Source of the DNA: a virus
DNA: 64,000 nucleotides
IMG/VR virus record: IMGVR_UViG_3300029787_000010
Coordinates: 1 to 64,000 of that record
Reading direction: 5' to 3' (one strand)
The translations under genes and the position numbers were made by a program. Below, in pieces: positions 4,877-61,064 of the stretch. The notes beneath the pieces are model-generated. The model was not told the origin of the DNA and did not search any database. It saw nothing but the letters and a program-made list of their open reading frames with translations. Position 1 is the first letter of the stretch. The number at the start of each line of letters is the position of its first letter.

Positions 4877-4913
4877 GATTTCAACTTCTCTTTATAAAGA
4901 ATCAAAACAATAG
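4877..4913 (+). promoter_or_regulatory. 37-bp repeated promoter-like element, copy 1
   Basis: GATTTCAACTTCTCTTTATAAAGAATCAAAACAATAG, identical to 14513-14549; contains TATA box TTTATAAA. Confidence 0.8.
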
Positions 4914-14512: not shown

Positions 14513-14549
14513 GATTTCAACTTCTCTTTATAAAGAATCAAAACAATAG
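14513..14549 (+). promoter_or_regulatory. 37-bp repeated promoter-like element, copy 2
   Basis: Exact match to 4877-4913; intergenic. Confidence 0.8.
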
Positions 14550-17393: not shown

Positions 17394-17832
17394 GTCATCA
17401 TATCTCTTGAGAGTCTGCAAACTATGTGGTGGTTGTCTGCTTGCCGAAACGAAGTTCCGTCACCGTGTGGGGGAATACCGAGCGAGCACAGGGGGTACCA
17501 AGCACTGGTGCCTGTCCTGTCAACGCAATGTCCCAACCTTGCTCAAAGAGTCCTACACGCCTTGGGAACAACATGACAAGAACTTACACACGGGAGAGGA
17601 ATTGGAAGGTAAGCATAGTTGGATTCATTCTGCTTTCATTGACAAAGGCGAGACAACGGGGAAGTTCTACTTTTACCTTGACGGCGTTGAAGAAATCCCC
17701 GACCCTTGGGTGCGGGAGTTGGTTCGGCGATACAAGGAGACAAAGGAACAGTTGTCCGAAATGACGAACAGGTACAACGACCATGTTTCCACTGTGATGA
17801 ATTGGAGTTTTGGAGGAGAGAAGAATGAATGA
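17386..17832 (+). CDS. Zn-finger protein (148 aa)
   Basis: CKLC...CLSC; start moved to ATG 17386. Confidence 0.75.
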   Translation: MSESSYLLRVCKLCGGCLLAETKFRHRVGEYRASTGGTKHWCLSCQRNVPTLLKESYTPWEQHDKNLHTGEELEGKHSWIHSAFIDKGETTGKFYFYLDGVEEIPDPWVRELVRRYKETKEQLSEMTNRYNDHVSTVMNWSFGGEKNE

Positions 17833-18091
17833 CGACGAATGGTGCACAAACCTACTGGGCCTACTGACGATGCTTGACGAACTGATTCGCCTTTACGGCG
17901 ACGACGAAGAAGCACTCAAGCGTGTCGTAGGTAAATTCATTTGGCGTGTGACGCAGGCGAACCTGTCGTATGAAACACAGCCGGACTGGTCGGATGTTGG
18001 CACCTTTTTCAAGTTCGCTGGCGAGCCGGGCATCAGTCACTTGGTGGCCGAGTTTCGTCGCCGGCCTCTACCCACTGAGGCCGATGTGTGA
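17825..18091 (+). CDS. Hypothetical protein (88 aa)
   Basis: GGAGG RBS before ATG 17825. Confidence 0.7.
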   Translation: MNDDEWCTNLLGLLTMLDELIRLYGDDEEALKRVVGKFIWRVTQANLSYETQPDWSDVGTFFKFAGEPGISHLVAEFRRRPLPTEADV

Positions 18092-18865
18092 GAACATGCG
18101 GTTGATGGCTCGCTCTCTTTGAGCCAGCCTATTCTGTAAGGCATCGTAGCCCCTTCCACTGTGGAAATCGTGATATGAATCTTCAATGGGCTCTACGAAC
18201 TTATCAAACGGCGTCCGGTCAATTCGTCTTTGAAGTAAAGACAAATCAATTTCGGGTACATCAAAGTCAACACCGGGGTGTCTGCGACCAGTCCCCCGCT
18301 TTGGTTGAAAGTGACCCGCATCGCCAAAGTCGGGGTCATGAATGAGCACAGGCTTGGGGTCCCGAGGTGAACCTATCCCCGGCTTCCTCAATTGATACCT
18401 GTTCATCAAACCACTGGCACTGTGGTGCTCCATCCAGTTCTGTGGTTTGAGGTCAGTCAAGTTCATCGCTTCAAGAAGTGGCATTTTGTCATATACGCTT
18501 TGTTGAATGATTCTTCCTCTCGCTGTGTCTTCATTCATCCCTAAAGGACTGCCGTCAATTGCTCTACCACGGGGCTGCTGCGACAAAATTGGCAGACTCA
18601 TATCCCCTAACTCTACCGGCAATGACATCCTTTGTTCAATGGGCTGCTGCCCTGCGAATAGTCCAATAGGCATTTGACTGAGTAGTTGGTTGTAGTACAT
18701 CGCATCCAACTGAGAGGGGTTTTTGTCAAGGTCGCTGACCTTCACCACATCGGGGTTTCCTGTTTGACCAAACACCACTTGGTTCATCCCTGCTCCAATC
18801 TGTACTCCTTTGGCTGGCTGAAAGGCCGCCTTCAATATGGACCACGCTATATCAACCGGGTCCAT
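18068..18865 (-). CDS. Protein-kinase-like protein (Ser/Thr type) with an N-terminal AWxxLK leader
   Basis: Ordered motifs IGAGMNQVVF (Gly loop), VVKV (beta3 Lys), TDLKPQNW (catalytic loop) and LIHDPDFG. Confidence 0.72.
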   Translation of the reverse strand: MDPVDIAWSILKAAFQPAKGVQIGAGMNQVVFGQTGNPDVVKVSDLDKNPSQLDAMYYNQLLSQMPIGLFAGQQPIEQRMSLPVELGDMSLPILSQQPRGRAIDGSPLGMNEDTARGRIIQQSVYDKMPLLEAMNLTDLKPQNWMEHHSASGLMNRYQLRKPGIGSPRDPKPVLIHDPDFGDAGHFQPKRGTGRRHPGVDFDVPEIDLSLLQRRIDRTPFDKFVEPIEDSYHDFHSGRGYDALQNRLAQRERAINRMFSHIGLSG

Positions 18866-18886
18866 GTACGAGCCAAGTGCTCGTAC
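18866..18886. promoter_or_regulatory. Perfect 8-bp inverted repeat abutting the kinase start codon
   Basis: GTACGAGC-caagt-GCTCGTAC. Confidence 0.55.
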
Positions 18887-18904
18887 GAGATAACCATTTC
18901 CTAT

Positions 18905-18932
18905 TTCTCTTTAAAAAGAATCAAAACAATAG
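18905..18932 (+). promoter_or_regulatory. Promoter-like repeat, copy 3 (27/28 match to the core)
   Basis: TTCTCTTTAAAAAGAATCAAAACAATAG in a divergent intergenic region; leader hairpin ccggctc/gagccgg at 18946-18972 follows. Confidence 0.75.
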
Positions 18933-19001
18933 TCTACTGGGTTTCCCGGCTCCCCCATTCCAAATGAGCCGGACGAATTAAATACAGGATAGTGAACCAA
19001 A

Positions 19002-20555
19002 ATGAATATGCAGACCGGGACGACAGTGATTGGAAGAGTGACAGAGAGCAGAAAAGACAGGGTGTTTATGGACTACCCGTCCAATGCTGGGGTGAAGAAC
19101 CTCAACATTGAGCGACAGGACATTGAACGCTTTGAATCGTTAGACGACGGCCGAGTGGCCATCACCTTGAGTGGTGCCACAGAAGCCCAACTCTACGGCA
19201 GCAATGCCCCGCTGATTGTCACAGCACAAGACATTGCCATCGTTGAAGCGATGGAATATGGAGAACAAATACCAAACGGAGAGAACAACATGAACGAAGA
19301 ACACAACGACGAGGTGCCAAACTTTGGCACAGAAGAGCGACTGGTGATGGAAGTTGGAGCAGATGGACAGGTGTCGGTGAACGCCGCCGGTCCCTTTGAC
19401 GACTTCCTTTACGCAGGAAACAGAAAGAACAAGGCGACGGCCGACTGGGACTTCCAGCCTACTGAGAAAATGGGCTTTGTCCTGTACGAAGACGAACGAA
19501 GCGGGCAAACTTCGGCGGCGAAGATTGTGGACAACGATGGCAAGCCCATCGTGAAGCACATTTTCAACCCGAACTACGCCAACGAGAAGCGGCCCCTTGG
19601 TGCCCACCTTGGGATGTTCAGCCCGACCTACTACGCCATGCCGTATGCACGGGGCTTCCGTCCCATCTTGGACATGTGTGCCAAAAACGGATGGCCAGCA
19701 AAGGTCTTTGCTTACAGCGAAGGTAAGAACGCTCGCCTTGATGTAGATGTCACCAGCAGTGTTGACTGGGATGCAGCCGCACAGAACAAACTTGGTAGCC
19801 GATGGCAGAACCTTGGCTTTGTGAAAGAGGGCGATTATCGTGTTGGCTTCTCCATCTACAACAGTTTGGACGGGTCCTCATCATTCAAGGTCGCCGCCAT
19901 CGCTCAGCGACTGGAGTGCACTAACGGCATGGTTGTTGGCAAATCACAAACCCTGCTCAAGTTGCGACACACCAAGGGCGTTATGGAGAATTACGACTTC
20001 AACTCACTCGCTGACAAACTTGAACAAGTCATGATGTCAGCCGCTGAGGAACTGATTGAGGTTGAAGCCATGCGCAACATCACCGTCAGCGACGAAGCCT
20101 TTGAGCGACTGATGACGCTGAGTGAGAAAGCCGGCCTCATTACCAAGCCGACTGTTCACCGTGATGACAAGGGAGAAATCACCCACCTTAGCCGTGGCCA
20201 CATGTGGCGAGTCATGGGACAAGGGTGGACCAACCCTGCCAACACATGGGTCCGTGTCCAAGGTGATGACCAACACACCCTCTACCATGTCTACAACATC
20301 CTTACCGGAGCGGTGACTCACAAGCCAATCTACCAAGACAACGAGCACTACCGCAACAAACCACTGGAAGGTAAGACCCTCGGCTTCAACGCCATGGACA
20401 AGAAACTCACTGATACACACACCATGCTCCGCAAGGTCAGCGACAGTGTTATCACTGCAATCGGCGGCGACCCCAATGCGCTGCTTGACCAGTCCGAGTC
20501 AGTCCTTGAGGACCAACTCGCCTCAGTGCCACTCTTCTCGGAGGTAATCTACTGA
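19002..20555 (+). CDS. DUF932-family protein
   Basis: IYNSLDGSSSFKV....RLECTNGMV....LRHTK motif and the TLYHVYNILT..VTH tail typical of DUF932. Confidence 0.8.
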   Translation: MNMQTGTTVIGRVTESRKDRVFMDYPSNAGVKNLNIERQDIERFESLDDGRVAITLSGATEAQLYGSNAPLIVTAQDIAIVEAMEYGEQIPNGENNMNEEHNDEVPNFGTEERLVMEVGADGQVSVNAAGPFDDFLYAGNRKNKATADWDFQPTEKMGFVLYEDERSGQTSAAKIVDNDGKPIVKHIFNPNYANEKRPLGAHLGMFSPTYYAMPYARGFRPILDMCAKNGWPAKVFAYSEGKNARLDVDVTSSVDWDAAAQNKLGSRWQNLGFVKEGDYRVGFSIYNSLDGSSSFKVAAIAQRLECTNGMVVGKSQTLLKLRHTKGVMENYDFNSLADKLEQVMMSAAEELIEVEAMRNITVSDEAFERLMTLSEKAGLITKPTVHRDDKGEITHLSRGHMWRVMGQGWTNPANTWVRVQGDDQHTLYHVYNILTGAVTHKPIYQDNEHYRNKPLEGKTLGFNAMDKKLTDTHTMLRKVSDSVITAIGGDPNALLDQSESVLEDQLASVPLFSEVIY

Positions 20556-37037: not shown

Positions 37038-37645
37038 GCGAAGTAATGGCCATTGATATTGAAACTGAGAACTTCTCTCACGAAATTGGAGGCTGGGGCA
37101 ACACTCACATGTTCTCCCCAACGGTCGTGGCTACATGGACTGGCGATGGCGGTACAGTCTACTGCAACAAATCACAGGCGAGTGAGTTCCTACCCGAAGG
37201 TGTCAAACTCAAGTCGTTGTCTCCCGAGGTACTTGGTCGGGACATTGAAGAGCACATCGCTAAAGGAGGTAGAGTGGTCGGGCACAACATCATCGGCTTT
37301 GACCTTCCTGTATTGCGGGACAGTCTTGATTGCTGGACAGCAGGGGACCTTCTTGGTAAAGCATCCGAAACGCTCATTGATACCTCGGCAAAATTGCGGT
37401 CGGCTTCTAAATCAGCCATCCCACTCTCCGACGCTTGTATTCACACGCTTGGCATGGACAAGACCATGAAAAGTCATGACGCTCCGCTTGAATGGCGGAA
37501 AGGCAACTACGGCAAGGTAGCCGAGTATTGCCTCAAAGACGCTCAACTCTCGTACGACCTGTGGAAGTTTGGTAACAAAGAAGGCTTCGTGAAAGCACGA
37601 TGCCGAGAAACCGGCTCAATCAAGGAGTACGAGGTTGAATGGTAG
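37034..37645 (+). CDS. DEDDy 3'-5' exonuclease (RNase H-like)
   Basis: DIET, GHNIIGFDLPVL, YCLKD. Confidence 0.88.
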   Translation: MSEVMAIDIETENFSHEIGGWGNTHMFSPTVVATWTGDGGTVYCNKSQASEFLPEGVKLKSLSPEVLGRDIEEHIAKGGRVVGHNIIGFDLPVLRDSLDCWTAGDLLGKASETLIDTSAKLRSASKSAIPLSDACIHTLGMDKTMKSHDAPLEWRKGNYGKVAEYCLKDAQLSYDLWKFGNKEGFVKARCRETGSIKEYEVEW

Positions 37646-37656
37646 GAGAGGAACCT

Positions 37657-39153
37657 ATGACAAATGAAAAGAAACAAACAGCACAAAGCATGAACATCCG
37701 AGCAGCAAAGGCCATTGCCGATACGGTGCGGTCCACCTTGGGCCCAGCGGGTATGGACAAAATGATGGTGGATGGCGGTGGCAATGTCATCGTCACCAAC
37801 GATGGGGCTACCATCCTACAGCAACTTGACATCAGTCACCCCGGTGCGAAAATGATTGTGGAAGCAGCAAACACTCAAGAAAGCATGTGCTACGACGGCA
37901 CGACGACGACCACGATTTTGGCTGGCTCTTTGCTCGCCAACACAGAAGGCTTGTTCAACAAGGGTTTGCACCCGAATGTGGTATGCCGTGGTTACAGGCA
38001 GGCTGCCCAGTGGGCGGTGGAAGCCATCACTGAGACAGCACAGGGTAGTAGCAAAGACTTGCTGAATGTAGCCAAGACAGCCATCACGGGTAAGTCGTTG
38101 GAAAGCAGCATGGACCATGTGTCCGGACTGTGTGTTGAGGCAGTGGAGCAAGCCAACGGGGACATCAAGCGCATCAATGTAGTGTGCCAACCGGGTGCTT
38201 CATTGGAGGATTCATATTGCTTTAACGGGGTCGTTATCAACACGACCTTCATGATGCCGAGCATGAGCAAGGTGCCTGCAAAGAACATCATCCTGCTCAA
38301 CACAGGGCTGTCGTCAAAGAAGGATGACAGTGTCCAAGTCAATGTGCAGAATGTTGGCGACTTCAAGAACTACCAGCAGTACGCCACCAAGGATGTGTGG
38401 GAGACGAAGGTAGAAGCACTCACAGAACTACTCCCCGAAGGCGGGGCAGTGTTCTGCCGCGACAGTGTGAACGAACTCGTGGCCGCTCTCTTGTCTAAGA
38501 AAGGCATCAGTGTAGCACACCGTGTTCCACCTACTACCCTTGACGCCATGTCGGCGCTACTGGACACACCCGTCGCTCACACTGTAGAGGACATTGGCGG
38601 AGTAGCGCAGCCGACTGAGTTAGAACAGCGCACGATTGGTGACATGGATTACATCGTCGTGGCCGGCGAAGGTAATGTCACAACACTCGTTCTGCGAGGA
38701 GCCACCCGACAGACCCTTGACGAAACAGAGCGTGGATTTGACGACGCCATCGGCGTGGTCTGCTTGGCCTTCAACAGTGACCAAATCGTAACGGGCGGCG
38801 GCTCGTCCTACATCCATGCTGCGCTCGCTCTACGCAACCGTGCGGCCGAGATTGGCGGTCGGGCGCAAATGGCCATTGAAGCCTTTGCAGACGCCTTGGA
38901 AGCGATTCCTGCGACCATCGCTGAGAACGCTGGCTTTGACCCGTTGGACACGGTGCTGGCTCTACGCAGCGCCCACCTCCTTGGCAAGAAGGACTTCGGT
39001 CCGAACATTGAGGAAGGCGGTGTCTGTTCTATGATTGGGCTGAATGTGTACGAACCATTGGCCTTGGTGAAGCAGGCGATTCAGTCAGCAAGCGAAGTCA
39101 GCATCAGCATCCTGCGCATTGACGACATCATCGGGAAGCGTTCCGAAGAGTGA
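37657..39153 (+). CDS. Group II chaperonin (thermosome-like)
   Basis: STLGPAGMDKM, TNDGATIL, DGTTT, GGG, AENAG.D, ILRIDD. Confidence 0.96.
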   Translation: MTNEKKQTAQSMNIRAAKAIADTVRSTLGPAGMDKMMVDGGGNVIVTNDGATILQQLDISHPGAKMIVEAANTQESMCYDGTTTTTILAGSLLANTEGLFNKGLHPNVVCRGYRQAAQWAVEAITETAQGSSKDLLNVAKTAITGKSLESSMDHVSGLCVEAVEQANGDIKRINVVCQPGASLEDSYCFNGVVINTTFMMPSMSKVPAKNIILLNTGLSSKKDDSVQVNVQNVGDFKNYQQYATKDVWETKVEALTELLPEGGAVFCRDSVNELVAALLSKKGISVAHRVPPTTLDAMSALLDTPVAHTVEDIGGVAQPTELEQRTIGDMDYIVVAGEGNVTTLVLRGATRQTLDETERGFDDAIGVVCLAFNSDQIVTGGGSSYIHAALALRNRAAEIGGRAQMAIEAFADALEAIPATIAENAGFDPLDTVLALRSAHLLGKKDFGPNIEEGGVCSMIGLNVYEPLALVKQAIQSASEVSISILRIDDIIGKRSEE

Positions 39154-39955
39154 TTTGCCCAGCGATGTGAGAGGCAACCTTGAGGGCTTCTTCATCCACC
39201 CCTGTGGTGAAGCCCCAAGCGTGCAGGTGAGACACCAGTGTTTCGGTGGATAGGTTAGCCCCGCTGTTGGCAGCAAACGGGCACCCACCAAGACCACCGA
39301 TACTTGAATCAATCTCGTAAATGCCGTTCATTAACGCAGCCCGAACCAACTCAAGTGCACGGTCCTCCTCACCATTGTGATGAAGATGAAGTGCTGCTCG
39401 CATACCCTCGTTCTTGGCTAACTCAGCCAATTCAGCGACCTCTTTACGAGTTCCTGCTCCGACTGTATCAGCGAAGACGATAGTGCCACCGAACATTTTG
39501 GCATCGCGGATGCAAGAAAGAAGTGTACTCATGCGAGGCACCCCGCTCCAAGGCGAACCGAAGGCCATACTAATGTAAACTCGGACATTCTCTTTGGGCA
39601 CTTTGTCCATGAAAGTTTTGTACATCAGTACAATCTCACTACGGGTCTTACCCATGTTCTTCATGTTGAAGTCCTCGCACGGCGAGAACACGATGTTGAA
39701 CTTCTCAACACCTGTCGCCACAGCACGCTCGTAACCACGCTTGTTCATGACCAGTGCACTACCACGGTCAAACACTTCCTCAGCATCAGCCATTTGCGGC
39801 ACAAGGCGAGGGTGAGCAAAACTTACTTCCTCTATAGACTGCAAGCCTGCGTCGTATAGGCTTGCGATTAACTGTCGCTTGGTTGCTGTTTCAACAGGCT
39901 GTTTCAGTGCTTGGAGTCCATCACGAGGACCGACCTCGTAGATGGAGATGTTCAC
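39128..39955 (-). CDS. hmgL: Hydroxymethylglutaryl-CoA lyase
   Basis: EVGPRDGLQ, SF..P..VPQMAD, ADTVG, HLH, SSIGGLGGCPFA, N.STE. Confidence 0.92.
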   Translation of the reverse strand: MNISIYEVGPRDGLQALKQPVETATKRQLIASLYDAGLQSIEEVSFAHPRLVPQMADAEEVFDRGSALVMNKRGYERAVATGVEKFNIVFSPCEDFNMKNMGKTRSEIVLMYKTFMDKVPKENVRVYISMAFGSPWSGVPRMSTLLSCIRDAKMFGGTIVFADTVGAGTRKEVAELAELAKNEGMRAALHLHHNGEEDRALELVRAALMNGIYEIDSSIGGLGGCPFAANSGANLSTETLVSHLHAWGFTTGVDEEALKVASHIAGQITLRNASR

Positions 39956-43308: not shown

Positions 43309-46300
43309 TCACTCCGTACTGTGGTCACCCGTGTTGAAGTTCGTATCGCCGTCTGCGCCCTTGGGGTGCAACGATTGACTGTAGCGAGGCTCTACCGAAA
43401 AGTCTTCCTTTCGTGCAGCGTCGCTGCGGAAATGTTCCAAGGTGTTCTCACTCATGACAATGCGGGCCACTGGATTGGTAATGTCAGTCTTGTCATAGCC
43501 CGTCACATCCACACCCAAAATTTTGGGTCCGTTGCTGTCCGAAGCAGTGACACTCGTGTTGGGAGCGATGCTGTAGACCGGTGAATATGGAGGACTGCTG
43601 GGCGTACCTGTCCGTGCGGACGGGGCATCACTGGTGTAGATACCGTACTTACCTCCACCTGTAGCGAGGTAGAAGTTGCTGCCGTCTTGAGGGCTGCCCG
43701 TCTTGAGCATACGCTTACCACGGAACAACTGGGCATGATGCTTGTCCAGCGTGCGCACAGGGCGCACAAGGAACTCAATGCGACTGTCGGAGACATTGGT
43801 CTTGCCGTCAGTCGGGTCATGGTTAGCGTCTTGATATGGATTGGATGTAGAAGCAGTGTTAGCCTTGCCCCAACCCTCGTCGGAAAGTGCACCTTGTCGC
43901 ACTGACCAATCCATGATGTAGGTGCCACCAAGACTCCACATGCTGTGAGCATCCGAGATTTTCAAAATACCCTTGACAGGCTGGGCTGACCAACTGAGGG
44001 CTGTCATGTCCAAGTGACCAAGAGTCTGTGAGCCGACATCCTTTGCACCACGCAGCGTGATTCGCTGACCGACGCTTCGGTTGCTGTGTAGACTATGTGC
44101 CTCAGTTGACATAATGATGTACTCTTGACTTTCACCGTCGTTGAGTTCACTCATTGTGTCCACATCAAGTCCTATACGCACACCGTCTGCACCTACAGGG
44201 TCAGTCATATCTGTGTTAGCACTGACTGTTTCAATGCTCTCACTGACCATGGCCTCGGGCTTGAGAAGGCCTTCTTCGCTGTCCAGTTCCAACCTCGCGC
44301 TGATACCACGCTCAATCTCCTCCGCTTGAAGCACATCGTTGCGTGGACGATTGAGTCCTTTACCAATAGTCGGCTCACTTGTCGGCTGTGAGAGGACGAG
44401 GCCGGTTGGCTCAATTGATTCGGACACATCCATTAGCAGACTTTCATTGAAATGCGTGGGCCAGCGCACACCACGACCGTCTCCACGGTCGCCGACACGC
44501 ATGGAGTTAGCCGGATTGAACCAATCCACCGTACCCATGTCTGTAGCATCGTTGTTGACTGTGTTGCTGTTGCCGCTTTGACGGTCGTCGTAGGATGCAA
44601 ACAAACCTCGGTTGGCAGGTCGGTCATTACGACCGCCGTCTGTGTAAGCGTTCTCCGGGTCCCACGCAGGACTGATGCCGAAGCCACGGACAGGGAACCG
44701 GCGAACATCCTCACCACGAGTGTTGCCCCACCAGTCTACAAGGTAGTAACGATGAGCGTTAGCAAGTTCGTAAATCTCCTTGCCAGCAGCATCTCCTGCG
44801 TACATTTTCCGGACAGTAGACGGGTTGCGTAGAACACGCACAGGGCAGCCAAACGGCTTTGTCATTCGGCGACCGTCGCTGTAGCGAACCTGTCGCCCGA
44901 GTTGGTCTTCGTTGAACAACGCACTGATTTGCGTCAGTCGTTCAAGAATACCCGCGTAAGACGCTGGGTAATCTGTACCGGCCTTCCAGCCGTCCGTCTT
45001 GCTATCCTGTTGTACAAACGGCCCGTGGTAGTAACCAAGCAATGCGTTGCTGTTAGCCACTTCCAAGTAGCCCCGAACATACGGTGACCAACGAGGGCGA
45101 TTCATTGGTTGACGCACAGCCATGCGGTAGCCAAAGCAGTAGTTACGAGCATCGTCGGAATCGCTGGTCATTTGTGCATAGGTACGCTCATCTACACCAC
45201 TATTGTCACGGAAACTTACACAGTCCACTCCGAACAACTTGCCACCCCAACCAATCAGCGCCTCAAGGAATCCGTCAAGGCGACTGGAACCAGCGCCGCC
45301 ACGAGAGCCGCCGGGCCAATAGCCTGCAAAGTTGAACTTGTCCGAGCCGATTGTCCCACCTTGATGTGAAAGTGCCGATGTGGCGTCCAGTTGACTGGCA
45401 GTGAAAATGGCTCCAGTGCCACCTACGGAACTGGTGGTAGAAATGCTGATTTCCATTATTGGGAAACGGTTAGTGGTGCTGGCTCCGTCTACTCCGTTGA
45501 CCGTCGCTGGACTTGGATTGTTGGACATTTTGCTGTCATCAATGACACCCCAAAGTGTTGAAACATAGAGTTTGGTCCCATCGTCACTCCAGTCAATACC
45601 TGAAACCCAAGGGGTGGTATCACTGCCGGACTGAGAAACCGAAGCAGATTTGTTAAGGAAGTAAGTACGCAAGTCAAGTGTCACATCCAAACTGGAAGTA
45701 GAGGTGTCATAAGGTGTAGACAAAGTGTACTCTCGTACATAGCCGGACGCTCCACTCAGCCACATTTTAGTCCCGTCCGAGTTGAACAATATGTCGCTGA
45801 TTGTACTTGCGCTGATTGACGCTGATGTACCTTCGGTATCGCCACTGGCCACGATGTAGGGGCTGGCAGTGGAGAATTGACGAAGAGTAGAAGCATACCC
45901 TACGAAATACTTGGTACCGTCTCCGTTCCAAGCGGCGGCACGAATACCTGTTTGGCTTGACAAATTCTTACTACCGGTGAAAGTAAAGGTGCTTGACACA
46001 TCAAATGCGGATGCGAGTGTTGCACTTCGTATGCCGCCGCCATGGAAATCTGTGACAATCATCTTTGTGCCACTGGGGTCAATATCAAATCCGTCACAAC
46101 TGTTGAGGTCCGAATCTCCAAGGCCCGCACTCTGTTGGTCGTAAAGTCCGTCAGTATTGGCAATGTCAATTTTAGAGAAAAATACATTGTCAGTATCGTA
46201 ATCGTTATTGTTACCACGGTTAGAAACAATGATGTCGTCCCCAACTACGCGCATACCTGTCAACCATGTAGTCGTGGCATGAATTTGTTGGAAGTTGATA

Positions 46301-49300
46301 CCTTTGCGGTTAGCCGTCGTCCCTACTGAATCGGACACTGCTTGTAGTGAATATGAAATGGTTTCTTCATAGGGCGGCTTCAACCAGTTCATGCCAAGTG
46401 CAAACGGACCTTTGGAAGCAGCGTAAAAGAAATCATTGTAATGGACTGTTTCATAGTGCTCGGGGATGTTATTCAGTCCTTTCTTGAGTACAGGGCTGTC
46501 CACATCACCTGCTTTTGTGTAGAATGAACGGGAACCATCGTCCGAATAGTAGGTGAATGGTCGTCCGAGATTGGGGTGCCACATACACAGGAACGCATCG
46601 GGAAGATGAAGACTGTTTGTATCACGAGTACCAGTGTAAGTTTGTAAGAGGTTACGAGTGACTATGCTCTTATTTGAATCAGTGTAGATTTCATCAGCGA
46701 ACCGGTTAGCATAAGGCCCGGTCAATTTGACGATAGTGCCCGAACCACTGACAGTCAAGTTAGTCCAAAAGTTCGGAGTGATGTTGACCACTCCAGCAAA
46801 TTGCACAGGGGAGCCAAGTGTCGCGTGAGCCAATGTGCCCACACGGTGCGTGTAAGTAGCCAATTGCCTTTCTCCATTGGAGTCTATATATTCCAATTGC
46901 TCTCCGTAATACGGGTCTACTGGGAACAACTCAGCGTTAGTCACTGTGATTGTTTTAGCAGAATCGTCTTTCGCAGTAGCACGGGTGTTGGGATTGAGTG
47001 AGCGTATTCGGAAATGCTCAGCGTAGATGTCGGGGTAGCAAGTGGGGTAGCCTGCCAATGTAATCTGTGCACCAACAGCGCCGAATGTAGCCCTGTTCAA
47101 TTGATAGTAATGGTCGGGAGTGTGCCATTCTAAATGACGGAAGTATGTCGCTGCTGCCGCTCTTGCGCCGTCTTTGTGCAACTGTGCCCACCAAGGTACA
47201 GTGATGGTGAAGCCGGGCGTGGTTTCTACGAACATGTTCGGGTGGTATGGTAGCGAACGACGACTGAATGCGGGTGAAGCAGACTCCTCTACGCCCAAGG
47301 GATTGTAGAGAGCAAGAGGTGGAAGGTTGGTGAATTGACTACCTGCATCGGGCTCAATGTCCAACATCAGTTCGTTAAGAAGTATTTCACAACCACGCAC
47401 ATCGGCCATGGTAGCCTCAGCAAGAACAAGTGTGTAGCCGCCGTCTCCACTCGTAGAGTGCTCAATAGCGATGACCGTGTTGACCTGTTGACCCGTGAGT
47501 TCAATAACAGACCCATCGGGCACATTGTTAGCAGGCCCGTTCCGGTGATAGCCATTGAATTGTTGCTTAAACAAATTTGGCTGAATAACAATTTGGTAAG
47601 CACCTACTTCCATAGGGTCGGGGAAGTGATTGTTTTGAGTGTAAGTTCCAGCAGCCTCCAGCACAATGCTATGGCCACCTGTCTTATTGGCATCTATAGA
47701 AGCAGCAATACCGTAGCCTTCAAACTTCAATTTTGTCTCTGTGAGCAAGGTGAATGCGCCGCCGTGGATGTCCGATGGAGAAACGGATGCAGTTGGGCCG
47801 GAGAACCAAATCAAGGGGTCACGATGAGGGCGCTTTCCTTCGTCACTGAACTCTTCTTCAACTGAAATAACCGATGCTGCGGAAGCGGCCCTGTGCAAAT
47901 CATACAGTCGTTGATACGCAGGATGAGCGTAATGGCCCGGCATCATTGCCATGGTGGCGTTGACATAATGGTGACCCATGCGAGGGATTGGCATCGGTGT
48001 CAATTTAGGTGTACCCAATTGTGTCATTGGAGTGGTACCGACATTTGGCCAATCAATGGTAGGCATGTCCGGGCTGGCACCGCTGTACTCTGCATGGTCA
48101 CGCAGACGGCGAGCGGCAAAGAATCGGGTGCTACCGGCTGGCATGTAGTACGATGGGACAACCTTGAGTCCAGTCTTCCCAGCCACGAATGACGAGAAGT
48201 CGGGACTGTAGACGACGCCTGTGAACTTGTTTGTCCCCACCCCCGTATACGAAGCGATGACGCCTTTATCGGTCGTCGGGTCATAAACGCGCAGGAAATA
48301 CCGACCGCTACTTTGCTCGTTTGAATCTGTCCATGTAGCCGCTTCGGGTGTAGACCCGACGGTGATTTCTGTACCGCTGAAACTGGAGTAGGTCAGTTCG
48401 TCAACATCGTACCGATGCGTCATGGTCGCACCCATTTTTGTCACATGGAAGTGCAGGGCACGGTCGTGTGGCTCATAGGCTGTCTTGAGAGAAGCGTTAT
48501 CCGTATGTTGCTGCCAGCCCTGCGTTGAACTGTTAGGGAACGCAAGTCGGTCATTACTTACATCTGACCCATCTTGAGAAAGGTGTTCCCACCCATTGTT
48601 CTCCCAAGTTGGCCAAAGGCGAGGACCGGTGTAGGTATCAGCAAAGGTGTCCTTGACAGCCCCTTCTCCCTGCAACGGGTGCATAATACCGCCAGCCCCC
48701 ATCGTTTCGGTTTGGTAGCCCTGTATTCGGTCAAATCCGGGTCGCACGATGATGTTGCCCGGAATCTCGTTCGCAAGTGGTAGACGGATGCGCATGTTTG
48801 GTGAGACACCGTCACCGGCAAGCGAAGGGGCCAAGCCCTCAAGGTCCCGGTCGCTGACATGTCGGAAGTCATAGATGATGGTACCCAGTGGACTACCTCC
48901 TTCTAACCGGTGCTCTTGCCCTGTATCGTCAACGACCTGTAAACTTCGGAACTGCAATTCTTCGTTGGGTATGTTGAGTGCACTTTCTACAAGTGGATAG
49001 TTCAGTTCCAATTGCGGATGGCTCAATTCTTGCGCTTGGATAAGTGGCATCATGGCTTTATTTGTGGTTTCAAAAGAAAACCGATTGTTACCAAGGACTT
49101 TTTCACCCACTGTTTTGTAAGTTGAGGAGTCTTTGCGCACGACCCATGGTGTCATGCCCAGTCCACGAGCGTTGCTGGCAGGAAGCGTGAGGTTGCCACC
49201 GTCCATTCGCTTCCAAACGACATGTTCTTCAAGGAAATTACGAGCAGCCTGTCGCCCGTTGTAATACTTGTACAGACCTTCACTTGTGCTGTAATACTGT

Positions 49301-52300
49301 ATTTTGGTTGTCACACCCGTACACTCAACTCCATAGGTTGCACTGTCTTCGTGATTGGCGCGTGCCGGTACGATTGACTTATCCCAAAACAAATCACCTG
49401 TCGGACTGTGACAGGCATCGCCGCGACTAATGTGAGAAGCGGCTGTGACTCGTGAATGCCAGTAGGCTTCCGTGCCGACCGCTGGATAGGAGGTGGCTTT
49501 TTGTGGGAAAGAAGTTGTTGTATTGACCATAGTAGCCTCAATGTGAGGCCCGGCAGTAGCGTGTGAAACATAGCGGTCTTTGTTGTGTACCTTACCAGTG
49601 TTCCAAGCAACCGTGCCAGCATTAGCAAGCGTGGCACTTCGTTTCACATCCAACCAGTCCCCCATGGCAATAATGCCGTCTCGGTCGGTCTTTGCGATGA
49701 GTGGCAATTCGCTTTCGTGCGTCACAGCAATCAAGTGTCGGGAAGCAAGACCATGAACGCAACTTTCCGATGACAAAGTAGTGATGGTGTCTATAGAGCC
49801 ATGAGGGGAAACGCTGCCTATACAAGACTCTGCACTACCGTATGGAGAGAACCCTAAGAATGGGTGCCATGCACCGAGTCCGGCAGCAAAGGTGGAGGTA
49901 GTGCCTACTTCCAATGAGTTGAGATATGAGTATCGTTCACCTGCCCAACCTACTGCGCCAATCGGTTTCGTGCGGTCAACGGCGTCCATAAGTCCGTTGA
50001 AGTGCACTTGTGTACGCTCATTGATTGATTCATTGGAATTGTCGTAGCGATGCGTACCAGCCTTGGTCCACACATACACTTTGACATTTGGACCATTGAA
50101 TGTTGCAGAAGGTATGGCTGCCTTTGAAACTGGGTTGACAATGTTACTGTTGGAGGTAATCGTATTGACACCAAGCGTAAAAGTAGCGCCTGTGTACGAA
50201 ACATAGGGTGCAAACCCACTGACTGCTCCATCGCTAACTCTTAGCCAGCCGTATTGAGGTAGTGTGGTAGGAATGGCAGATGTCACTGTAAGGGTCGCCG
50301 CAGTTGGTCCGGAAGCATGTTCAGTGTAACCTGTGTTTTGAACTGCATCCAGTGTCACCCAACCGTAGCGGTCTTGCTTTGCAGCGTGCTGCATAGACGG
50401 TAAGAAGGTTCCACCAATCGCTTTCAATGGTTCAGTACCGGGGAAAGTGTTGATGGATGTAGCGACAACAGCCGCTAACTCTTCTGCATTTTGGCAACGC
50501 GTGGCATCAATGATGAAAATGTTATCAGTGTGGTCCATAGCGGCTTCGGAACCGTAAGTGCCAAGGTATGCTTTGGCCAAAGCAGAAGCAACACGGAACA
50601 CCGACGGGTTTTGTGATGTGCCCGAACCTGTTGCCAATCGCTGGGTGGATTTAGGATGCTTGATGTTACGGATGATATGGTTGTCCAAGAAATGCCCACC
50701 GGGATGGTAGCCGCCGTCCATGTGCCAAACACAGCCACTGGCATGCGTTGTCGGCAAAGAAGCGTGCCCCATCGCCACACCGGCAACATTGGTGAAAACT
50801 TCATTCATCAAATGAGCGTTTGCTGGAGGACTTGATGCTCCTAATTGACTTTGATAATAGCGCCCTTCTCCTGCACTTTGACCGTAATAAGTGGCGTTGG
50901 GTGAACCTTTAGTCGGCTCCCAATTTAAAATGAAATTGAAACCTTGGACATTGGTCTTTTGGTATTCTTTTGCAGGAGGTAACCTTGCTCCGAAGCCTTG
51001 GATAGAAGCATCTCCGTGCGTGATGATGTTTGGAAGAAGAGAAAGACCCGACACTGGGTGATTTGTGGGTACAGCACTGTAGCCGTTACCTGTTTCAATG
51101 ATGTTTGAAAGTTGGGGCTCAAAGGAAGCAAAGTTGTGAGGCACGGCTTGACCCGGTCCAAAGACGAGATAGGTGGTAGAATCGTCCGCTTGTGGCGTAG
51201 AGTCATAACGGGCATGAGGATGTCCAAAGCGTATGACAATGGGGCTTGGACGAGCGCAATTCACAGTGAATCCTCCTCCAGCATAAGTGACACCAGTAGA
51301 TGATGCATTGGTGTTGTTCCCCGCATCCAAGTCCGGACTTAGCATAGCGTCTTGATTGAAGAACGGCATGTGATTGCGACCGTTATGTTGGTTGAGGTAA
51401 GGTGTTCCGGGGAACATAGCCAGCATAGCGTTAGCGTCAAGTAATGCGTACGAACCTGCAACCTCACCTACATTTTGCATTCCACTCGCACCTGTTGGTC
51501 CATCGGCGTACGGATGCGTGTAAAACTCCGAGTAGTCATTTTCTGTACCGTCGTTGATGTCTACGGTCACGCCCGAGAAACCGCCGCCAAAGTACAGAGG
51601 TACCCACCGGTCGGGACTGGGCTTACCCCCACGGAAGTAAAGGAAAGGCTCCCCGTGTTTACTTCCCTTCGTACGAATGCCTTGCAGGTATCTACTCTTC
51701 GCAATGCTGTTTTGCTTTACCAGTATGTCTCCTGCCACAGCAGTTGTCAAAAAGTCGTCGGAATGAGAAACTATGGTTGCGTGGTAATGAGAAGTTGAGC
51801 CAGCGGTGCTTTGCACACGAGCCCAGTTTTCTTCACCTAACCAAAGTACAACTTGGTTCCCCCATGAGTTACTGTCATTTGAGGCCGGCGTTAATGCCAA
51901 GAACAGTAACTCGTTATTGCTATTATCTGTTTCAATGTGAGGAGTACCAGTGTTGATAGTGGCGATTTCAATCATTGGTGAGTTGACCATGGGTATGATT
52001 CGGTCGCCGGGCAACCTGTAGAAGTTATCTCCACGCAAATTTTGACGCCACAAATCAGTGCTGACAATGTTGTTTTGACTGTTGACCAAAACTGGAGTAG
52101 CCGTGTTAGCGTTTGGACCTCGGAACTTGGTGGTAATCGTCAACAGCGTCTTTGGTAAGTAGCCACAATCAATGCGCATACTGTCGTTGATTTGACTTGC
52201 ACTCAAATCAGCATCAGCGACAGAGGCTTGAATACCCAAGTCGGGGGTCAATGAAGACTCAAAGAGATGGTTAAGTGGTACGACACGGTCTTTGGAACTG

Positions 52301-55300
52301 TAGGCTTTGATTCGCACAGCGCCGGGCTTTACGCCCCACTCACCCAAAGTGCGCCCGTCGGGAGCGTAGAGTCCAGTGCAATCAAAGGTAGTGGCTGCCA
52401 CATCGTCTGTGTTGGGGTCATCCATGTTGATGGCAAAGTTGACGGCCGCTGCCATCACTTCGTCTGTTAAAACACAAGTGAAATTGATACGAGGGCTCAT
52501 GATACGAGTCACTTTTCCACTTTGATAATTGGACCCTATATTCTTGACACCATACAAAAAGTGCTCATTGGACCCGCCAATACCAGCCTTACCCTCATGT
52601 GAACGAGAAGTATAGTAGTAGACTTCACCATTGTTGCCCGAGCCCATGTCATTCAACTGAATCAGCCCACTGTCCGGCAGTCCGAGATAACCAAGAATAT
52701 CTGTGTGCGTGAACGAACCACCATTGTCGTATGGCGAAGCGAGCGTGAACTTCAAGTTGTCATTTGAGCCGTCCTTTTCAACGGAGATGGAAATGCCCAC
52801 AGCAGGAGAATTGTAGTTGTTCCAAAGGTTGCCCTTGAACGACGACTTCGTCCCTGCTGTATAACGCCCGTTGACATCACCTTTCCCGGCCATGTGCTTA
52901 CCGACAGTGAATCCGCCCTGCCCAACATCTCGGTCATCAAAGTAAATGACAATTTCATCGTCAAGTGTTTCGGGGAGATGTGTCAAGTCGCCTGCAAAAG
53001 CCTCGCCAAACTGCCTGTACACGAAGCGTACAGTGTGAGACTTACCACGATGGTCAGCGAGTCGGATGCCGTACATTTGCCCATCACCAATTTTGTCGGG
53101 GCGTATCTCATCGTCGGGGATGTAGGAACCAGCCAACTGATTGACCAAGCCATGCTGCTTTGTCCCAATGTGCTCGTTGTCTCCGTAGATGTGGTCAAAG
53201 CGGACATTTTCCCCATCGGGACCATAACCCCAGCGACTACAATCGGGTGCCCATCCGGGTATGCCAGCCTGTGTCAATCCGCCAAAATTGATGCGACCAA
53301 TCGCCTGTGACCCTACTCGGAGTCCGTTGACGATGACTTGACCACTTGCTTTGGGCTCAAAGTTTGAATCAACAACTGTGTTAGCACTGCGCCCAGTAGC
53401 GTGCTCAGTGGTTGATTCTGTGTTGAGGGAAACGCTGCTTTGAATCTCGGGACCAAAGTCCAAGTTGTTTCGGTATTCGTCCGAAGTTTGCTCAACAGGA
53501 AGGTATTCTCGTAGCGTGGTGATGGGAGCAAACGGGCGACCGAGACGGTTAATTGGCATAGGTGCAGGGTGCATATTTTCGCCATCCTTTTCATTTGGTT
53601 GACACCAATAGTTGCGGAAGCGGCCACCATGCCCAATCAAAAATTCCGGACGATAAGGCGTCTGTGCACGGGATGCGTCTAACCACACACAGAAGTTGCG
53701 ACCGGATGCACCGGGAACCGTTGAGTGGATGACAACAGAATAGCCTTCTTTCCCATCTTCATCAGTGACAATGCGTCCCAAATGTGCTCGCATGTAGCCC
53801 ATATGACTACCACGGTCATGGCTACCAAACGCTGTGTCTTTGTTCCAAAACGGAGCAGGGTCATGAGTTGAGCCCGTAGCCGCAAAGTCAGCGCGCTGAT
53901 GTCTTGCTGCTGGGTCTTTGATACGCCCTGTGTTGACAGAAGTCTCACCCTTACCCAAATCAAACCGCTCACCTTCACCCAAATACTGGTCCGCTGGACG
54001 CCGTGCGTGAGTGCGTCCGTTCTTAGCACCTGCTTGATTGATGAGTCGGACCACCTCTTTTGCGGCTGCCTCAATATCAGTTACACCTTCTTTGACACCA
54101 ACCTCGCCTAAATCAATAACAAGGCGGCGAACGAAGTCCATGTTCGTCCAATGCGGGAGATGCTGGAGGCGGTCCTCTTCGTGAGTGGATAAATCAAGTG
54201 TAGATGAACGAATGCCCTTCATTGACAAGAATGCAGGAATGACTCTCGTCCCATCGGGGGTATCAAAGAATGTAGCCTGCTCAGTAGTGTCTTTGAGCAT
54301 TTGCTGATGCAAAGTGTTGGCCTCGGATGTATCAACCGTGGCGTCTTGAGTTCGTGGCATGATTGAACTGACTTGAGGGGTTTGCTCATGATAACCAGTT
54401 GCGTGGCTACCTATCGCTACATTTGCGTTCCAAGTGCTGTTATGCGACATTGACGCTTCTACAAATTCGGACGACGCACTGCTTGCCAAGTTCTTGTTTT
54501 GTGAGGCGAACCCTGCTGCGACATCAATTCCGGAGTTTCGCTTGTCATTGTCGTGGGCCCCGGAACCTTCGTTGTCAGTGCCAATTTTGACAGCGGCTGG
54601 ACTTGACTGAACTTGCATGTGCAAATCTTGGAACGCTATGAACTCCCGGTCATGAGCGACATCGTAAAGCAATACCCTCGCATGCTCTTCTGTAGACTGG
54701 TATGGGTCAAGGTATGCTACGACAGGTATAGCAGATGACAAACCGAGTGATTCATAATTCATCTCAATCGTTTTATTCACATGCTGTACGAAATTGCGAG
54801 CCGTTTCCAAACAAGAGTTCCCAATCAAAAAGTTCTCCAATGGTAGACTGCTACGAGGTATAGTAGCAAGGTCGCCCTCTCCACCAAGGAATCCTTCCCA
54901 CACCTCGCCTTCATTCAATGTTCCACGACTCTTGCAGAAAAGGCCTTCCGTGGCGTGAGGGTTCGTGTAGTGCATGTTCATCCACACAGTGTCACCAGCA
55001 CGCAGTCCACCCGGACAATACGGATTTGCCCAAGCCGTATTGAGGAAATAGTTGGTATTCACCTCGGGGAAAATAGATGTCGTAGTGTGCACATCTATGA
55101 GTGTGATTTCAGTCCCAACTGGAGGATTAAAGCCCGAATCAATTGAAACCAGTGCTAATGAATTACCAGTGCGAGTGTTGTAATGAGCATGTTTAAAGGC
55201 ACTTGCGGTGGTATCATAGTACCTTACACGGTAAGCATAATTGGAGTTAGCAGTTATGTCAAGAGGGAAATCCGACCCGTCTTTCAATACAAGAGTAGGA

Positions 55301-59769: not shown

Positions 59770-61064
59770 CAATTCACCCCTATTACATGGTCCGCACTGA
59801 CTACTTGTAAATCAAACCTGTAGTAGTTTTCCGCACCTTCTTTGCTCATGTGGAATGATTCGGGTATCACCGAAATGCCACCGCTATTGAGGGTCGCACC
59901 TCGCGCCGTAACCTTAGCCCACGCATCTCCAATGACATCGCCAATACCATCTATAGAAAAGCCAAACACATCTTCAATCACACTGGATTCGGGCTCACCT
60001 GTTTCTTCTTGGCCACTGCTGTCAAAAGCGCCGATGTCCATCGGCAGCGTACTCGGGCGAGTGTTGCGAAGCGAGCCCTTCTGCAAAGGAGACACTTTGC
60101 CCGCAGTGAGAAAAAAATTGCGTACAACAGGCGTAATGTCGTTTGAAGTGATGAGTGAGTTGTAGGGTATTTGGATGCCTCGTAAAAGGTCCTTGTCCTT
60201 TGTGCTATTCGCCAGCAAACCAAGCAAATTTTGGGCCTTATCACCTGCGCTCAAAACCTTACCTCCCAAGCCGTCCGAACTGGTTTTTTGAACTGCGATT
60301 GGGACCGGCCGACCTAATCCTGTATTCATAGCGAAAAACGGATTGTATCGCACAGCGTCGTTGACAAAGGTGTCCACCAATGTTAGCGTAGTACCCGAAA
60401 CGGAGTCATTGAAAGCATCAGTCACTTGCTTTCCACTCACGCCGTCCACGCTACTTGTTTTGGTAATTTCAGTGGTCAATTGAAGGGCATCCTGTACGAT
60501 AAGTGCTAATGTGCTGGCGGGGTTTGAGTTGGCTGAACTGTACATCACACCGCCAACCGGGACATCAATTTGCACTTTGCCTGTTTTTTCAGCCAAATTA
60601 AACGATGCGTTGACAGATGGTGTAGCGGAGCCGCCTGCACGGTTTGAAACAGAACTGTTGAATTGTAGGACTATGTAGTTGCCCGACAGAAGCGAAGCAC
60701 CACCATTTGGTGAGTTGTATCGCCAGTAGGCTGGCTGCAAGCCGATGAGCGAAGATTGTAGGTTGGTCTGTGTCGCAGTGTTTTGTACATTAACGACAGG
60801 TGTAGTTGTCGGCAATATGTTGGCGAAGTTCATGACGAGGGACGAAGGTGCAGAAGTAGTAAGGGCGCTCATAGGGTCGTCTTGAATGATGCCTTGTACA
60901 CTGATGACGATTTGGGGTATGTTGGTATCAATGGCTGCACGATAGGAACTGATAGGTACAGGGAATGCAGCCACTGTCCGCTCGGCCACGATGTTGATGT
61001 CGGTGGCGTCCACGAAGACCTCATGTCGGTCTTTCTCGCCAAAAATCAGTCGCAGCGGAATCAT
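59769..61064 (-). CDS. Dit-like tail protein, paralog 2 (431 aa)
   Basis: Shares SAGDKAQ.LLG..ANS, GIQIPY.S and RNFF.T.GK with 61074-62729; position. Confidence 0.6.
   Translation of the reverse strand: MIPLRLIFGEKDRHEVFVDATDINIVAERTVAAFPVPISSYRAAIDTNIPQIVISVQGIIQDDPMSALTTSAPSSLVMNFANILPTTTPVVNVQNTATQTNLQSSLIGLQPAYWRYNSPNGGASLLSGNYIVLQFNSSVSNRAGGSATPSVNASFNLAEKTGKVQIDVPVGGVMYSSANSNPASTLALIVQDALQLTTEITKTSSVDGVSGKQVTDAFNDSVSGTTLTLVDTFVNDAVRYNPFFAMNTGLGRPVPIAVQKTSSDGLGGKVLSAGDKAQNLLGLLANSTKDKDLLRGIQIPYNSLITSNDITPVVRNFFLTAGKVSPLQKGSLRNTRPSTLPMDIGAFDSSGQEETGEPESSVIEDVFGFSIDGIGDVIGDAWAKVTARGATLNSGGISVIPESFHMSKEGAENYYRFDLQVVSADHVIGVN

Follow-up and report, generated by a model that had tools for sequence, protein, structure and literature searches.

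The first 64,000 nucleotides of the virus record IMGVR_UViG_3300029787_000010 (hereafter the window) carry, on the minus strand at 18068-18865, a gene for a small (265 aa) and very divergent enzyme of the protein-kinase-like superfamily, in which the catalytic residue set is intact. This assignment is well supported by the conserved residues and by the predicted fold. The gene is conserved among magroviruses of the SNF2/thermosome type, which infect Marine Group II archaea, and its product starts with a short leader peptide, with AWxxLK at its core, that is also present on unrelated proteins of the same virus. The observations as a whole are best explained by a divergent kinase-like enzyme with a portable leader, which would be packaged, clipped and injected to modify the host, an explanation that we hold tentatively and place somewhat below an even chance. 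From the single IMG/VR record, 104,980 bp long and classed as linear and 98% complete, the window takes the first 64 kb.

Two protein searches recovered about 30 relatives of the kinase-like protein, all metagenomic, mostly 252-277 aa long and down to about 23-24% identity. A scan of IMG/VR with two peptide patterns, one derived from the leader and the other from the b3 strand, returned 288 stretches, 18 of which encode a kinase homologue. Conservation in the family is read throughout from an alignment of 26 sequences, down to 24% identity, whose invariant columns are A7, W8, L11, K12, F15, G26, P38, K42, P92, Q97, D138, N143 and D177. An earlier note, made from the letters of the window, had pointed to four kinase motifs in this protein, and all four are present: IGAGMNQVVF (residues 22-31), VVKV (40-43), DLKPQN (138-143) and HDPDFG (176-181). 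The last of these was proposed as the Mg loop; it is indeed there, but its invariant Asp is D177 of the "HDP", and the D179 of what looks like a DFG is not conserved. The Gly-loop residues (G24/G26) and the b3 Lys (K42) are 16-18 residues apart, on strands b1-b3. The features of the gene are as follows.

18068-18865, minus strand: coding sequence of the 265-aa tagged kinase-like protein, an open reading frame (ORF) with an ATG start that belongs to a conserved family and is the sole positive coding frame of six
18830-18865, minus strand: residues 1-12, MDPVDIAWSILK, the shared N-terminal leader (A7, W8, L11 and K12 invariant)
18773-18802, minus strand: Gly-rich loop IGAGMNQVVF, residues 22-31, strands b1-b2 (G26 invariant, G24 nearly so)
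18737-18748, minus strand: strand b3, VVKV, with the ATP-anchoring Lys42 (invariant, and mid-strand in the model, 39-45)
18437-18454, minus strand: catalytic loop DLKPQN, residues 138-143 (D138 and N143 invariant, K140 in 25 of 26)
18353-18427, minus strand: variable 25-residue insert (147-171), b7-b8, rich in indels and modelled with a pLDDT of about 70-79
18323-18340, minus strand: metal-binding loop HDPDFG, residues 176-181 (D177 invariant, P178 and F180 nearly so)
18086-18253, minus strand: C-terminal helical part, residues 205-260, with three or four helices (205-217, 220-234 and 240-260, pLDDT above 90)

The AlphaFold2 model obtained with the 26-sequence alignment has a pLDDT of 87.5 and a pTM of 0.87. 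The topology of its N-lobe is b1-b2-b3-helix C-b4-b5, with strands at 21-25, 29-33, 39-45, 74-76 and 92-98 and short strands at 144-146 and 172-175; one helix spans 51-63, several helices lie within 110-133, and the C-terminal part is helical. The model places G24 and G26 between b1 and b2, K42 in the middle of b3, D138 and N143 in the loop just before strand 144-146, and D177 directly after strand 172-175. When the model was compared with the PDB by Foldseek, 70 matches were found at E<=1e-3, and the best 50 of these 70 are all kinases, with AceK at the top (6.8e-6). VIA-align, run against 48,161 representative chains, gave a similar picture (48 of the best 50 kinase-like), and over residues 9-263 it scored CtkA at Z 7.4, HipA at 7.3, CotH at 6.7 and actin-fragmin kinase at 6.5; full-length structural matches are limited to such atypical kinases. 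The named matches in BFVD are mostly viral kinases, those of T7-like phages included. Finally, the language-model atlas, queried with the protein devoid of its tag, returned clusters of YrbL, Phage_T7_kinase, Kinase-PolyVal and OspG_kinase at 0.90-0.92, the Phage_T7_kinase neighbour standing at 0.92 with a label that 11% of that cluster's members carry. The earlier note had suggested a check by AlphaFold and Foldseek, and the strong structural matches are all to protein kinases or kinase-like proteins.

Comparisons at the level of sequence are much less generous. We searched Pfam at E<=10 with the target protein and each of the 26 relatives and no family was matched, a null that does not extend to the PF27024 HMM (Phage_T7_kinase) itself, whose presence in the Pfam copy is unconfirmed. 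PF00069 matched nothing across the whole genome, PHROGs gave zero matches to the kinase-like protein, and PDB profile searches with both family alignments yielded chance matches only (a designed FN3 domain, SPT16 and a DEAD-box helicase). We also compared the 26-sequence alignment by hhalign with an alignment of 21 members of the T7 gp0.7 family. A global alignment was not obtained, and the similarity lies in two local segments. The first pairs residues 8-44 with T7 58-95 (E 0.017-0.019; W8 with W58, L11 with L61, G24/G26 with G74/G76, K42 with K93), and the second pairs residues 128-208 with T7 185-233 (E 0.15; D138 with D195, N143 with N200, D177-P178 with D213-P214, F180 with F217). The segments are weak, yet they are co-linear and bring five catalytic residues into register with T7 gp0.7; W58, L61, G74, G76, K93, D195, N200, D213, P214 and F217 are invariant among the 21 T7-type members. 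A 21-residue gap opposite T7 gp0.7 corresponds to the variable insert on the magrovirus side. The alignments by hhalign to the single E. coli AceK and HipA sequences are not significant, and that to AceK pairs K42 with AceK residue 336. The T7 protein, which had been named as a precedent for a viral kinase, is thus moreover the closest sequence family found, if weakly so. Within the protein-kinase-like superfamily we assign the family, weakly, to a new sequence-orphan branch, with the minimal T7-type kinases as its nearest neighbours, because the Asp-Pro...Phe metal loop that stands in place of DFG is unusual, specific and shared.

Several of these results count against a kinase. Significance against any kinase family was reached by no sequence method, and each hhalign segment to the T7 family is individually weak. 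An AlphaFold run on 17 close sequences gave a pLDDT of 47 and was unusable. The structural scores are middling, with TM of 0.3-0.36 and Z below 8, values of Z that according to the tool can reflect common arrangements. A conserved helix-C Glu cannot be named in the family alignment: most members carry an Asp at position 54 or 55 of helix 51-63, in which no acidic residue is invariant. Since each structural score is middling, the case for a kinase rests on the agreement among independent lines, namely the AlphaFold model, Foldseek, VIA-align, BFVD, the language-model neighbours and the invariant residues, which together bear out a kinase-like fold with the full catalytic residue set. The same agreement makes it very improbable that the protein is unrelated to kinases, an orphan tagged cargo with coincidental motifs whose model was drawn to a common fold. 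The missing sequence matches, the poor first model and the low structural scores (Z below 8, TM about 0.35) would be expected of such a protein, but the invariant G, K, D, N and D in canonical order, spacing and predicted-strand positions would not, nor would matches to kinases that are uniform in the PDB and predominant in BFVD, language-model neighbours that are all kinase-like, and co-linear segments to the T7 kinase that include the rare Asp-Pro loop.

Judging from residues and model, the protein is kinase-like and probably active, and we hold this with good confidence. The residues for phosphotransfer are all invariant, which disfavours a pseudokinase. A D-x-K-x-x-N loop with Lys at D+2 is a signature of Ser/Thr protein kinases, and the DLKPxN loop with this Lys in 25 of the 26 sequences therefore suggests Ser/Thr protein substrates; we lean towards a protein rather than a small molecule as the substrate. 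The protein could instead have the fold without being a protein kinase, as a kinase of small molecules, lipids or nucleotides, or as a nucleotide-binding pseudokinase that plays a structural part inside the head. We regard this as improbable in view of the invariant phosphotransfer residues, the Lys at D+2 and the nearest sequence and language-model neighbours, which are the protein kinases T7 gp0.7, OspG and YrbL, even if the best full-length structural matches include PI4KII-alpha, MavQ and CotH, the ATP-grasp-like SAICAR synthetase is listed among the matches, neither the helix-C Glu nor a canonical activation segment can be named, and the C-terminal part is non-canonical. The earlier note had gone further and called the protein a Hanks-type kinase. 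The pattern D-[LIV]-K-x-x-N is indeed present, but there is no PF00069 HMM match, no HRD (the catalytic loop reads L-T-D-L-K-P-Q-N, with no His-Arg before D138), and DP replaces DFG in a metal loop of the form (H/M)-D-P-x-F. Judged on its sequence, the protein is not a member of the Hanks/Pfam Pkinase family.

The leader depends on where the gene starts. The earlier note had the gene span 18068-18886; the ORF is real, but that end lies 21 nt too far, because the stop-to-stop frame continues upstream of the ATG, and the true start is at 18865. An automatic gene call (P0002, 239 aa) starts at Met27, and we rejected it since conservation in the family peaks in residues 1-17 while Met27 varies. 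Met27 lies at window position 18787, and the public calls (P0002 and the ESM Atlas record) begin there, so that both the tag and the first strand are lost. The leader may be systematically missed by automatic annotation. The description of the gene as the only convincing minus-strand gene in the first 39 kb stands, because the other long minus-strand ORFs shadow plus-strand genes: each other minus-strand ORF of at least 100 aa in 1-39 kb overlaps a plus-strand ORF, those that were scored have negative codon-usage log-odds, and those with matches in relatives show a cross-genome identity below that of the plus frame. At the kinase locus the kinase frame alone, among six, scores positive. Its codon-usage score (0.055) and GC3 (0.53) are nearer to those of the tagged genes than to those of core genes. 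The kinase gene and the tagged genes at 97-104 kb have log-odds of 0.04-0.23 and GC3 of 0.42-0.64, the replication and head genes 0.18-0.33 and mostly 0.55-0.67.

The pattern AW..LK occurs once in the 64-kb window and 12 times in the six-frame translation of the genome, where 200 shuffles gave a mean of 0.435 and a maximum of 3. Ten of the 12 copies, each on the minus strand, lie 6-7 residues downstream of a start codon, and the leader can be extended to M-x-P-h-[D/E]-x-A-W-x-h-L-K. It is common to the kinase and nine other unrelated ORFs, whose bodies after the tag are unrelated (best pairwise BLASTP E 0.03). Nine of the ten N-terminal copies form a tight block at 97.2-104.0 kb, on the same strand as the head and packaging genes and upstream of them. 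The tag codons vary synonymously among the tagged genes, and selection therefore acts on the peptide. Similar AWxxLK starts on unrelated magrovirus proteins had been mentioned in the earlier note, which proposed a search of N-termini for the pattern; that search, which gave the ten copies above, also found such starts in the relatives G001 and G004. In these two fully read relatives the block of tagged genes lies at one genome end and the kinase gene stands alone, far off.

We found no Pfam domain in the strictly N-terminally tagged proteins of the block that were scanned. Two block proteins with an internal motif match DUF5872 and DUF6321, and a relaxed pattern finds internal or C-terminal copies in three more minus-strand proteins. 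An ORF of 425 aa (L003:6523-7800, minus strand, genome 96522-97799) opens with a basic part that resembles DUF5872, carries a full tag GDPMDIAWLLLK internally, near residue 185, and closes with the tag-like GEPMDLSFRLLK-GEW, and from its sequence it looks like a polyprotein punctuated by tags. Another (L003:9305-10099) has an internal PMDNAFALMK ahead of its DUF6321 domain, and a third (L002:5602-6654) an internal GEPMDIAFQLLK.

A possible link between the leader and the head comes from the maturation proteins of the virus. The genes for terminase, portal, prohead protease and major capsid protein (MCP) lie outside the window, in the same genome. P0037 is the capsid protein, and P0036 (L001:9463-10869, minus strand, genome 73463-74869) is a fusion of the prohead protease with an acidic, scaffold-like tail. 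The tag ends in h-h-L-K, and so do the candidate cut sites of the MCP (SELLK|ADAP, residue 34) and of the protease (SLSVLK|SS, residue 21, and EATFRILK|ED, residue 175, at the exact end of the protease domain). The junction EATFRILK|ED is invariant, save for R/S at one position, in every protease ORF that was matched within 80 related IMG/VR loci, and the residues downstream vary. The MCP site is invariant in 19 sequences, as is most of the MCP N-terminus. An N-terminal S-h-S-h-h-K|[AS] of the protease is also conserved, and the C-terminal tail of the protease/scaffold ends in MSWDEVHQLAGRAFN, which is loosely tag-like. By resemblance, the sites would suit a protease with cleavage behind h-h-L-K, and the tag would then have its own removal site at its end, as the capsid targeting sequence of T4 does (PMC3012670).

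A mechanism can be proposed from this. The kinase gene would be read together with the genes of the head strand; the leader would dock the protein inside the assembling procapsid, where the prohead protease would clip it after Lys12; the kinase would then enter the host cell together with the DNA and, as infection begins, phosphorylate Ser/Thr of host proteins or of co-injected viral proteins. The steps differ in how firmly we hold them. Packaging through the tag, for which the analogy with T4 speaks, is close to evenly balanced, while the clipping of the kinase-like protein itself is rather doubtful, and so, to the same degree, is its injection and action on the host. Across capsid targeting, clipping, injection and late timing, what we infer ranges from about even down to well below even. 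A more specific version, in which a dedicated Ser/Thr kinase is loaded via a clip-off address peptide and injected into Marine Group II archaea, as the lineage-conserved cargo of a system whose other cargoes turn over, is a little more doubtful still.

The position of the gene bears on these steps in two directions. Across the 18 related loci, no tagged ORF other than the kinase homologue occurs within 8 kb on either side. The homologue is antisense to its conserved neighbours (SNF2 helicase, DUF932 protein and four further genes of the replication module) in 17 of the 18, and it lies on the strand of the capsid gene (MCP) in all seven genomes where both could be placed. An inverted, head-strand gene within the replication module is therefore a deeply conserved trait. 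The start of the gene is flanked by three further features.

18866-18886, minus strand: perfect 8-bp hairpin GTACGAGC-ACTTG-GCTCGTAC that ends at -1 of the start codon (RNA fold -15.9 kcal/mol, z -3.35)
18887-18893, minus strand: TTATCTC, 21 nt upstream of the ATG, overlapping the upstream arm of a plus-strand repeat
18908-18919, no strand assigned: near-palindromic TATA-like core, the third copy of a promoter-like repeat, in the 137-bp divergent spacer

The repeat has a palindromic TATA-like core TCTTTATAAAGA, from which the third copy departs at one position; ACGAG precedes the core, and the ATCAAAACAATAG that follows it is identical in the copies. Its copies, at 4889-4900, 14525-14536 and 18908-18919 (6 strand-matches, against 0.24 expected), face the plus-strand gene starts at 4938, 14563 and 19002. 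Since the downstream ATCAAAACAATAG is identical and in plus orientation, the third copy belongs with the heads of plus-strand operons. The 5' arm of the hairpin overlaps the ACGAG arm of this repeat, and the hairpin is weaker in the closest relative, L004. The arrangement TTATCTC-N17-GTAC-ATG, with 14 fixed bases and the same spacing, occurs at the start of the kinase gene (at 18863-18893, minus strand) and at that of a tagged gene of 427 aa (at genome about 102,705-102,735, minus strand), and in the relative G001 a GTGGC(C)TTTTT box is common to the kinase gene and two tagged genes. Such common upstream arrangements are a hint that the kinase may be co-regulated with the cargo genes. As a distinct late-type promoter box, TTATCTC is weakened as a candidate: it overlaps the upstream arm of the repeat (ACGAG-ATAAC), and the heptamer is not enriched, with 8 copies in the genome. 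RNA-run contigs (one metatranscriptome run and one doubtful run) are short and lie on the neighbours, at 19106-19269 and 17872-18045, with none on the kinase gene; these contigs give neither strand nor level.

Some points tell against the proposed mechanism. The kinase gene is far from the tag block, inside the replication module. A TATA-like core of the type found at early-region plus operons lies 43 nt from its ATG, which makes early expression of the gene possible; the core might fire in both directions. Finally, in the alignment with the T7 family the W and L of the tag fall on W58 and L61, which are invariant there and stand equally far (16 residues) from the Gly loop. The first 12 residues had been described as a separate helix. 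A helix at 3-12 is indeed modelled (mean pLDDT 55 over residues 1-10), but with W8 and L11 aligned in this way it is perhaps not fully separate, and the first helix may be an intrinsic element of the kinase as well as, or instead of, a detachable tag. This alignment lowers the odds that the kinase itself is clipped and leaves those of the shared peptide being functional as they were. The orientation of the gene had been taken as that of the late strand: this holds only as co-orientation with head genes, in seven of seven genomes; expression may be late, and the promoter-like element that stands back-to-back with the gene is of the early-region type.

These points are also those one would expect if the kinase were active in the infected cell and never packaged. 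The leader would then serve some other common purpose, such as binding to a viral hub or chaperonin, timed proteolysis or localisation, or, on the kinase, could be no more than the N-terminal helix found in T7-type kinases as well. Besides the early-region-type element and the W8 and L11 alignment, the annotation of the closest sequence family, T7 gp0.7, as early and non-packaged fits this reading, as does the fact that the virus has its own thermosome-type chaperonin. We nevertheless consider it unlikely, if a serious contender, for the start of the kinase fits the whole 12-residue leader consensus (P3, D5, A7, W8, L11, K12), beyond W..L, and stands at the extreme N-terminus as in the other tagged proteins; the strand of the gene follows that of the head genes seven times out of seven despite its embedding among genes of the opposite strand; and the tag block directly adjoins the genes for head and packaging, with tags that end like candidate protease sites. 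The packaged and injected kinase therefore remains our tentative preference.

As for its setting, the window codes for a family-B DNA polymerase, an SNF2 helicase, a ParB-like protein, a methylase, a DUF932 protein, a PD-(D/E)XK nuclease and a thermosome-type chaperonin; the pairing of SNF2 helicase and thermosome subunit is the combination given for group A magroviruses (Philosof et al. 2017, PMC5434244). The chaperonin gene (37639-39153, plus strand; Cpn60_TCP1, E 1e-124) converges with a 26-nt overlap on an HMGL-like gene (HMG-CoA lyase family; 39128-39955, minus strand), which marks the end of the head strand. On that strand, window positions 43309-59772 are taken up by one ORF of 5487 aa, which has no similarity to the kinase-like protein, and an ORF of 1895 aa (L001:10897-16584) that has no PHROG match lies further on. 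Matches of the kinase family to giant proteins were rejected as homologues: that to P0028 arises by chance between residues 108-139 and a repeated, tail-fibre-like unit, P0033 is repetitive, and P0030 was not counted either, its match being assumed to be of the same repetitive kind. DNA near-identical to window positions 17800-19300 (all sampled words) occurs in runs from several separate marine metagenome studies dated 2014 to 2025, and the virus is widespread.

In the magrovirus literature that we searched, neither a kinase nor a shared leader peptide is mentioned. A conserved and catalytically intact kinase family offers one concrete enzyme that can be expressed, and whose substrates can be sought in Poseidoniales proteomes. 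It also adds a sequence-orphan branch to the protein-kinase-like superfamily, tied to the T7 gp0.7 kinases by the rare Asp-Pro metal loop. If the protein is packaged, injection by way of a removable address tag would not be peculiar to T4-like phages, but would be recurrent among viruses with the HK97 fold, archaeal ones included. If the full proposal is true, the kinase would be the first of any archaeal virus to be delivered by the virion, and the kinase with the tag block would amount to an independently arisen delivery system akin to the T4 internal proteins, with its own cut-site rule (h-h-L-K).

Among known kinases, the T7 gp0.7 family (Pfam PF27024, Phage_T7_kinase) comes closest. Both are minimal viral kinases that share, co-linearly, a W-x-x-L helix 16 residues before the G-x-G loop, a b3 strand V-x-K-V-G, a catalytic loop D-x-x-x-x-N-h-M and a metal loop (I/T/H/M)-D-P-x-(x)-F. 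The similarity is limited to E values of 0.017 and 0.15 in one profile-profile comparison, and there are clear differences: the catalytic loop is D-x-H in T7 and D-x-K in the magrovirus protein, which has an insert of 21-25 residues at b7-b8 and a different C-terminal half. The gene for T7 gp0.7 is an early one and includes an additional region for host shutoff. In the magrovirus protein the W-x-x-L helix forms the very N-terminus and is identical to the leader on unrelated proteins. The T7 kinase acts on host proteins (PMC5512222).

With the Hanks-type kinases (PF00069), the protein shares the order and spacing of the Gly loop, the b3 Lys, D-[LIV]-K-[P]-x-N and the metal-binding Asp, including the 96 residues between K42 and D138, a spacing that we take to be comparable to that of PKA. 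It differs from them in having no HMM match, no H-R-D, D-P for D-F-G, no identifiable helix-C Glu and a non-canonical C-lobe. A further group of minimal bacterial effector kinases and atypical kinases (OspG/NleH, YrbL, CtkA, HipA/HipT, CotH, actin-fragmin kinase and AceK) has a bilobal kinase-like fold with a reduced or altered C-lobe. It supplies the best structural matches, with the OspG and YrbL clusters among the language-model neighbours, and several of its members are delivered into another cell. However, sequence similarity to this group is not detectable, the catalytic loop of the magrovirus protein is of the Ser/Thr ePK type (D-L-K-P-x-N), unlike that of HipA and CotH, and the delivery proposed here would be by the virus head and not by a secretion system. 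The kinases of phage and conjugative-element polyvalent proteins (Pfam PF18762) are represented among the language-model neighbours by the Kinase-PolyVal cluster. Polyvalent proteins contain much-modified protein-kinase domains that are predicted to be packaged and then injected alongside the DNA, to serve in the early conflict with the host, so that kinases within such proteins are a known phage theme (Iyer et al. 2017, PMC5512222). Those kinases are domains of giant multidomain proteins, in contrast to the magrovirus protein, which stands alone with a short tag and has no HMM match.

For the leader, the comparison is the one that the earlier note had drawn, with the capsid targeting sequence (CTS) of T4, which occurs on diverse internal proteins, guides them to the inside of the scaffolding core and is able to bring in foreign proteins too (PMC3012670; PMC5512222). 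Like the CTS of IPI-III and Alt, the magrovirus leader is a short N-terminal peptide on diverse proteins encoded near head genes, and its end resembles the virus's own candidate maturation sites. The two have no sequence similarity, the magrovirus has an archaeal host, and the kinase gene is about 20 kb from the tag block. The T4 protease cuts after L/I-x-E, and the candidate site of the magrovirus is h-h-L-K. Short terminal peptides that dock unrelated cargo inside an HK97-fold shell are also known from the cargo-loading peptides of encapsulins and the capsid-targeting tail of the HK97 prohead protease; theirs are usually C-terminal, whereas the magrovirus leader is an N-terminal peptide.

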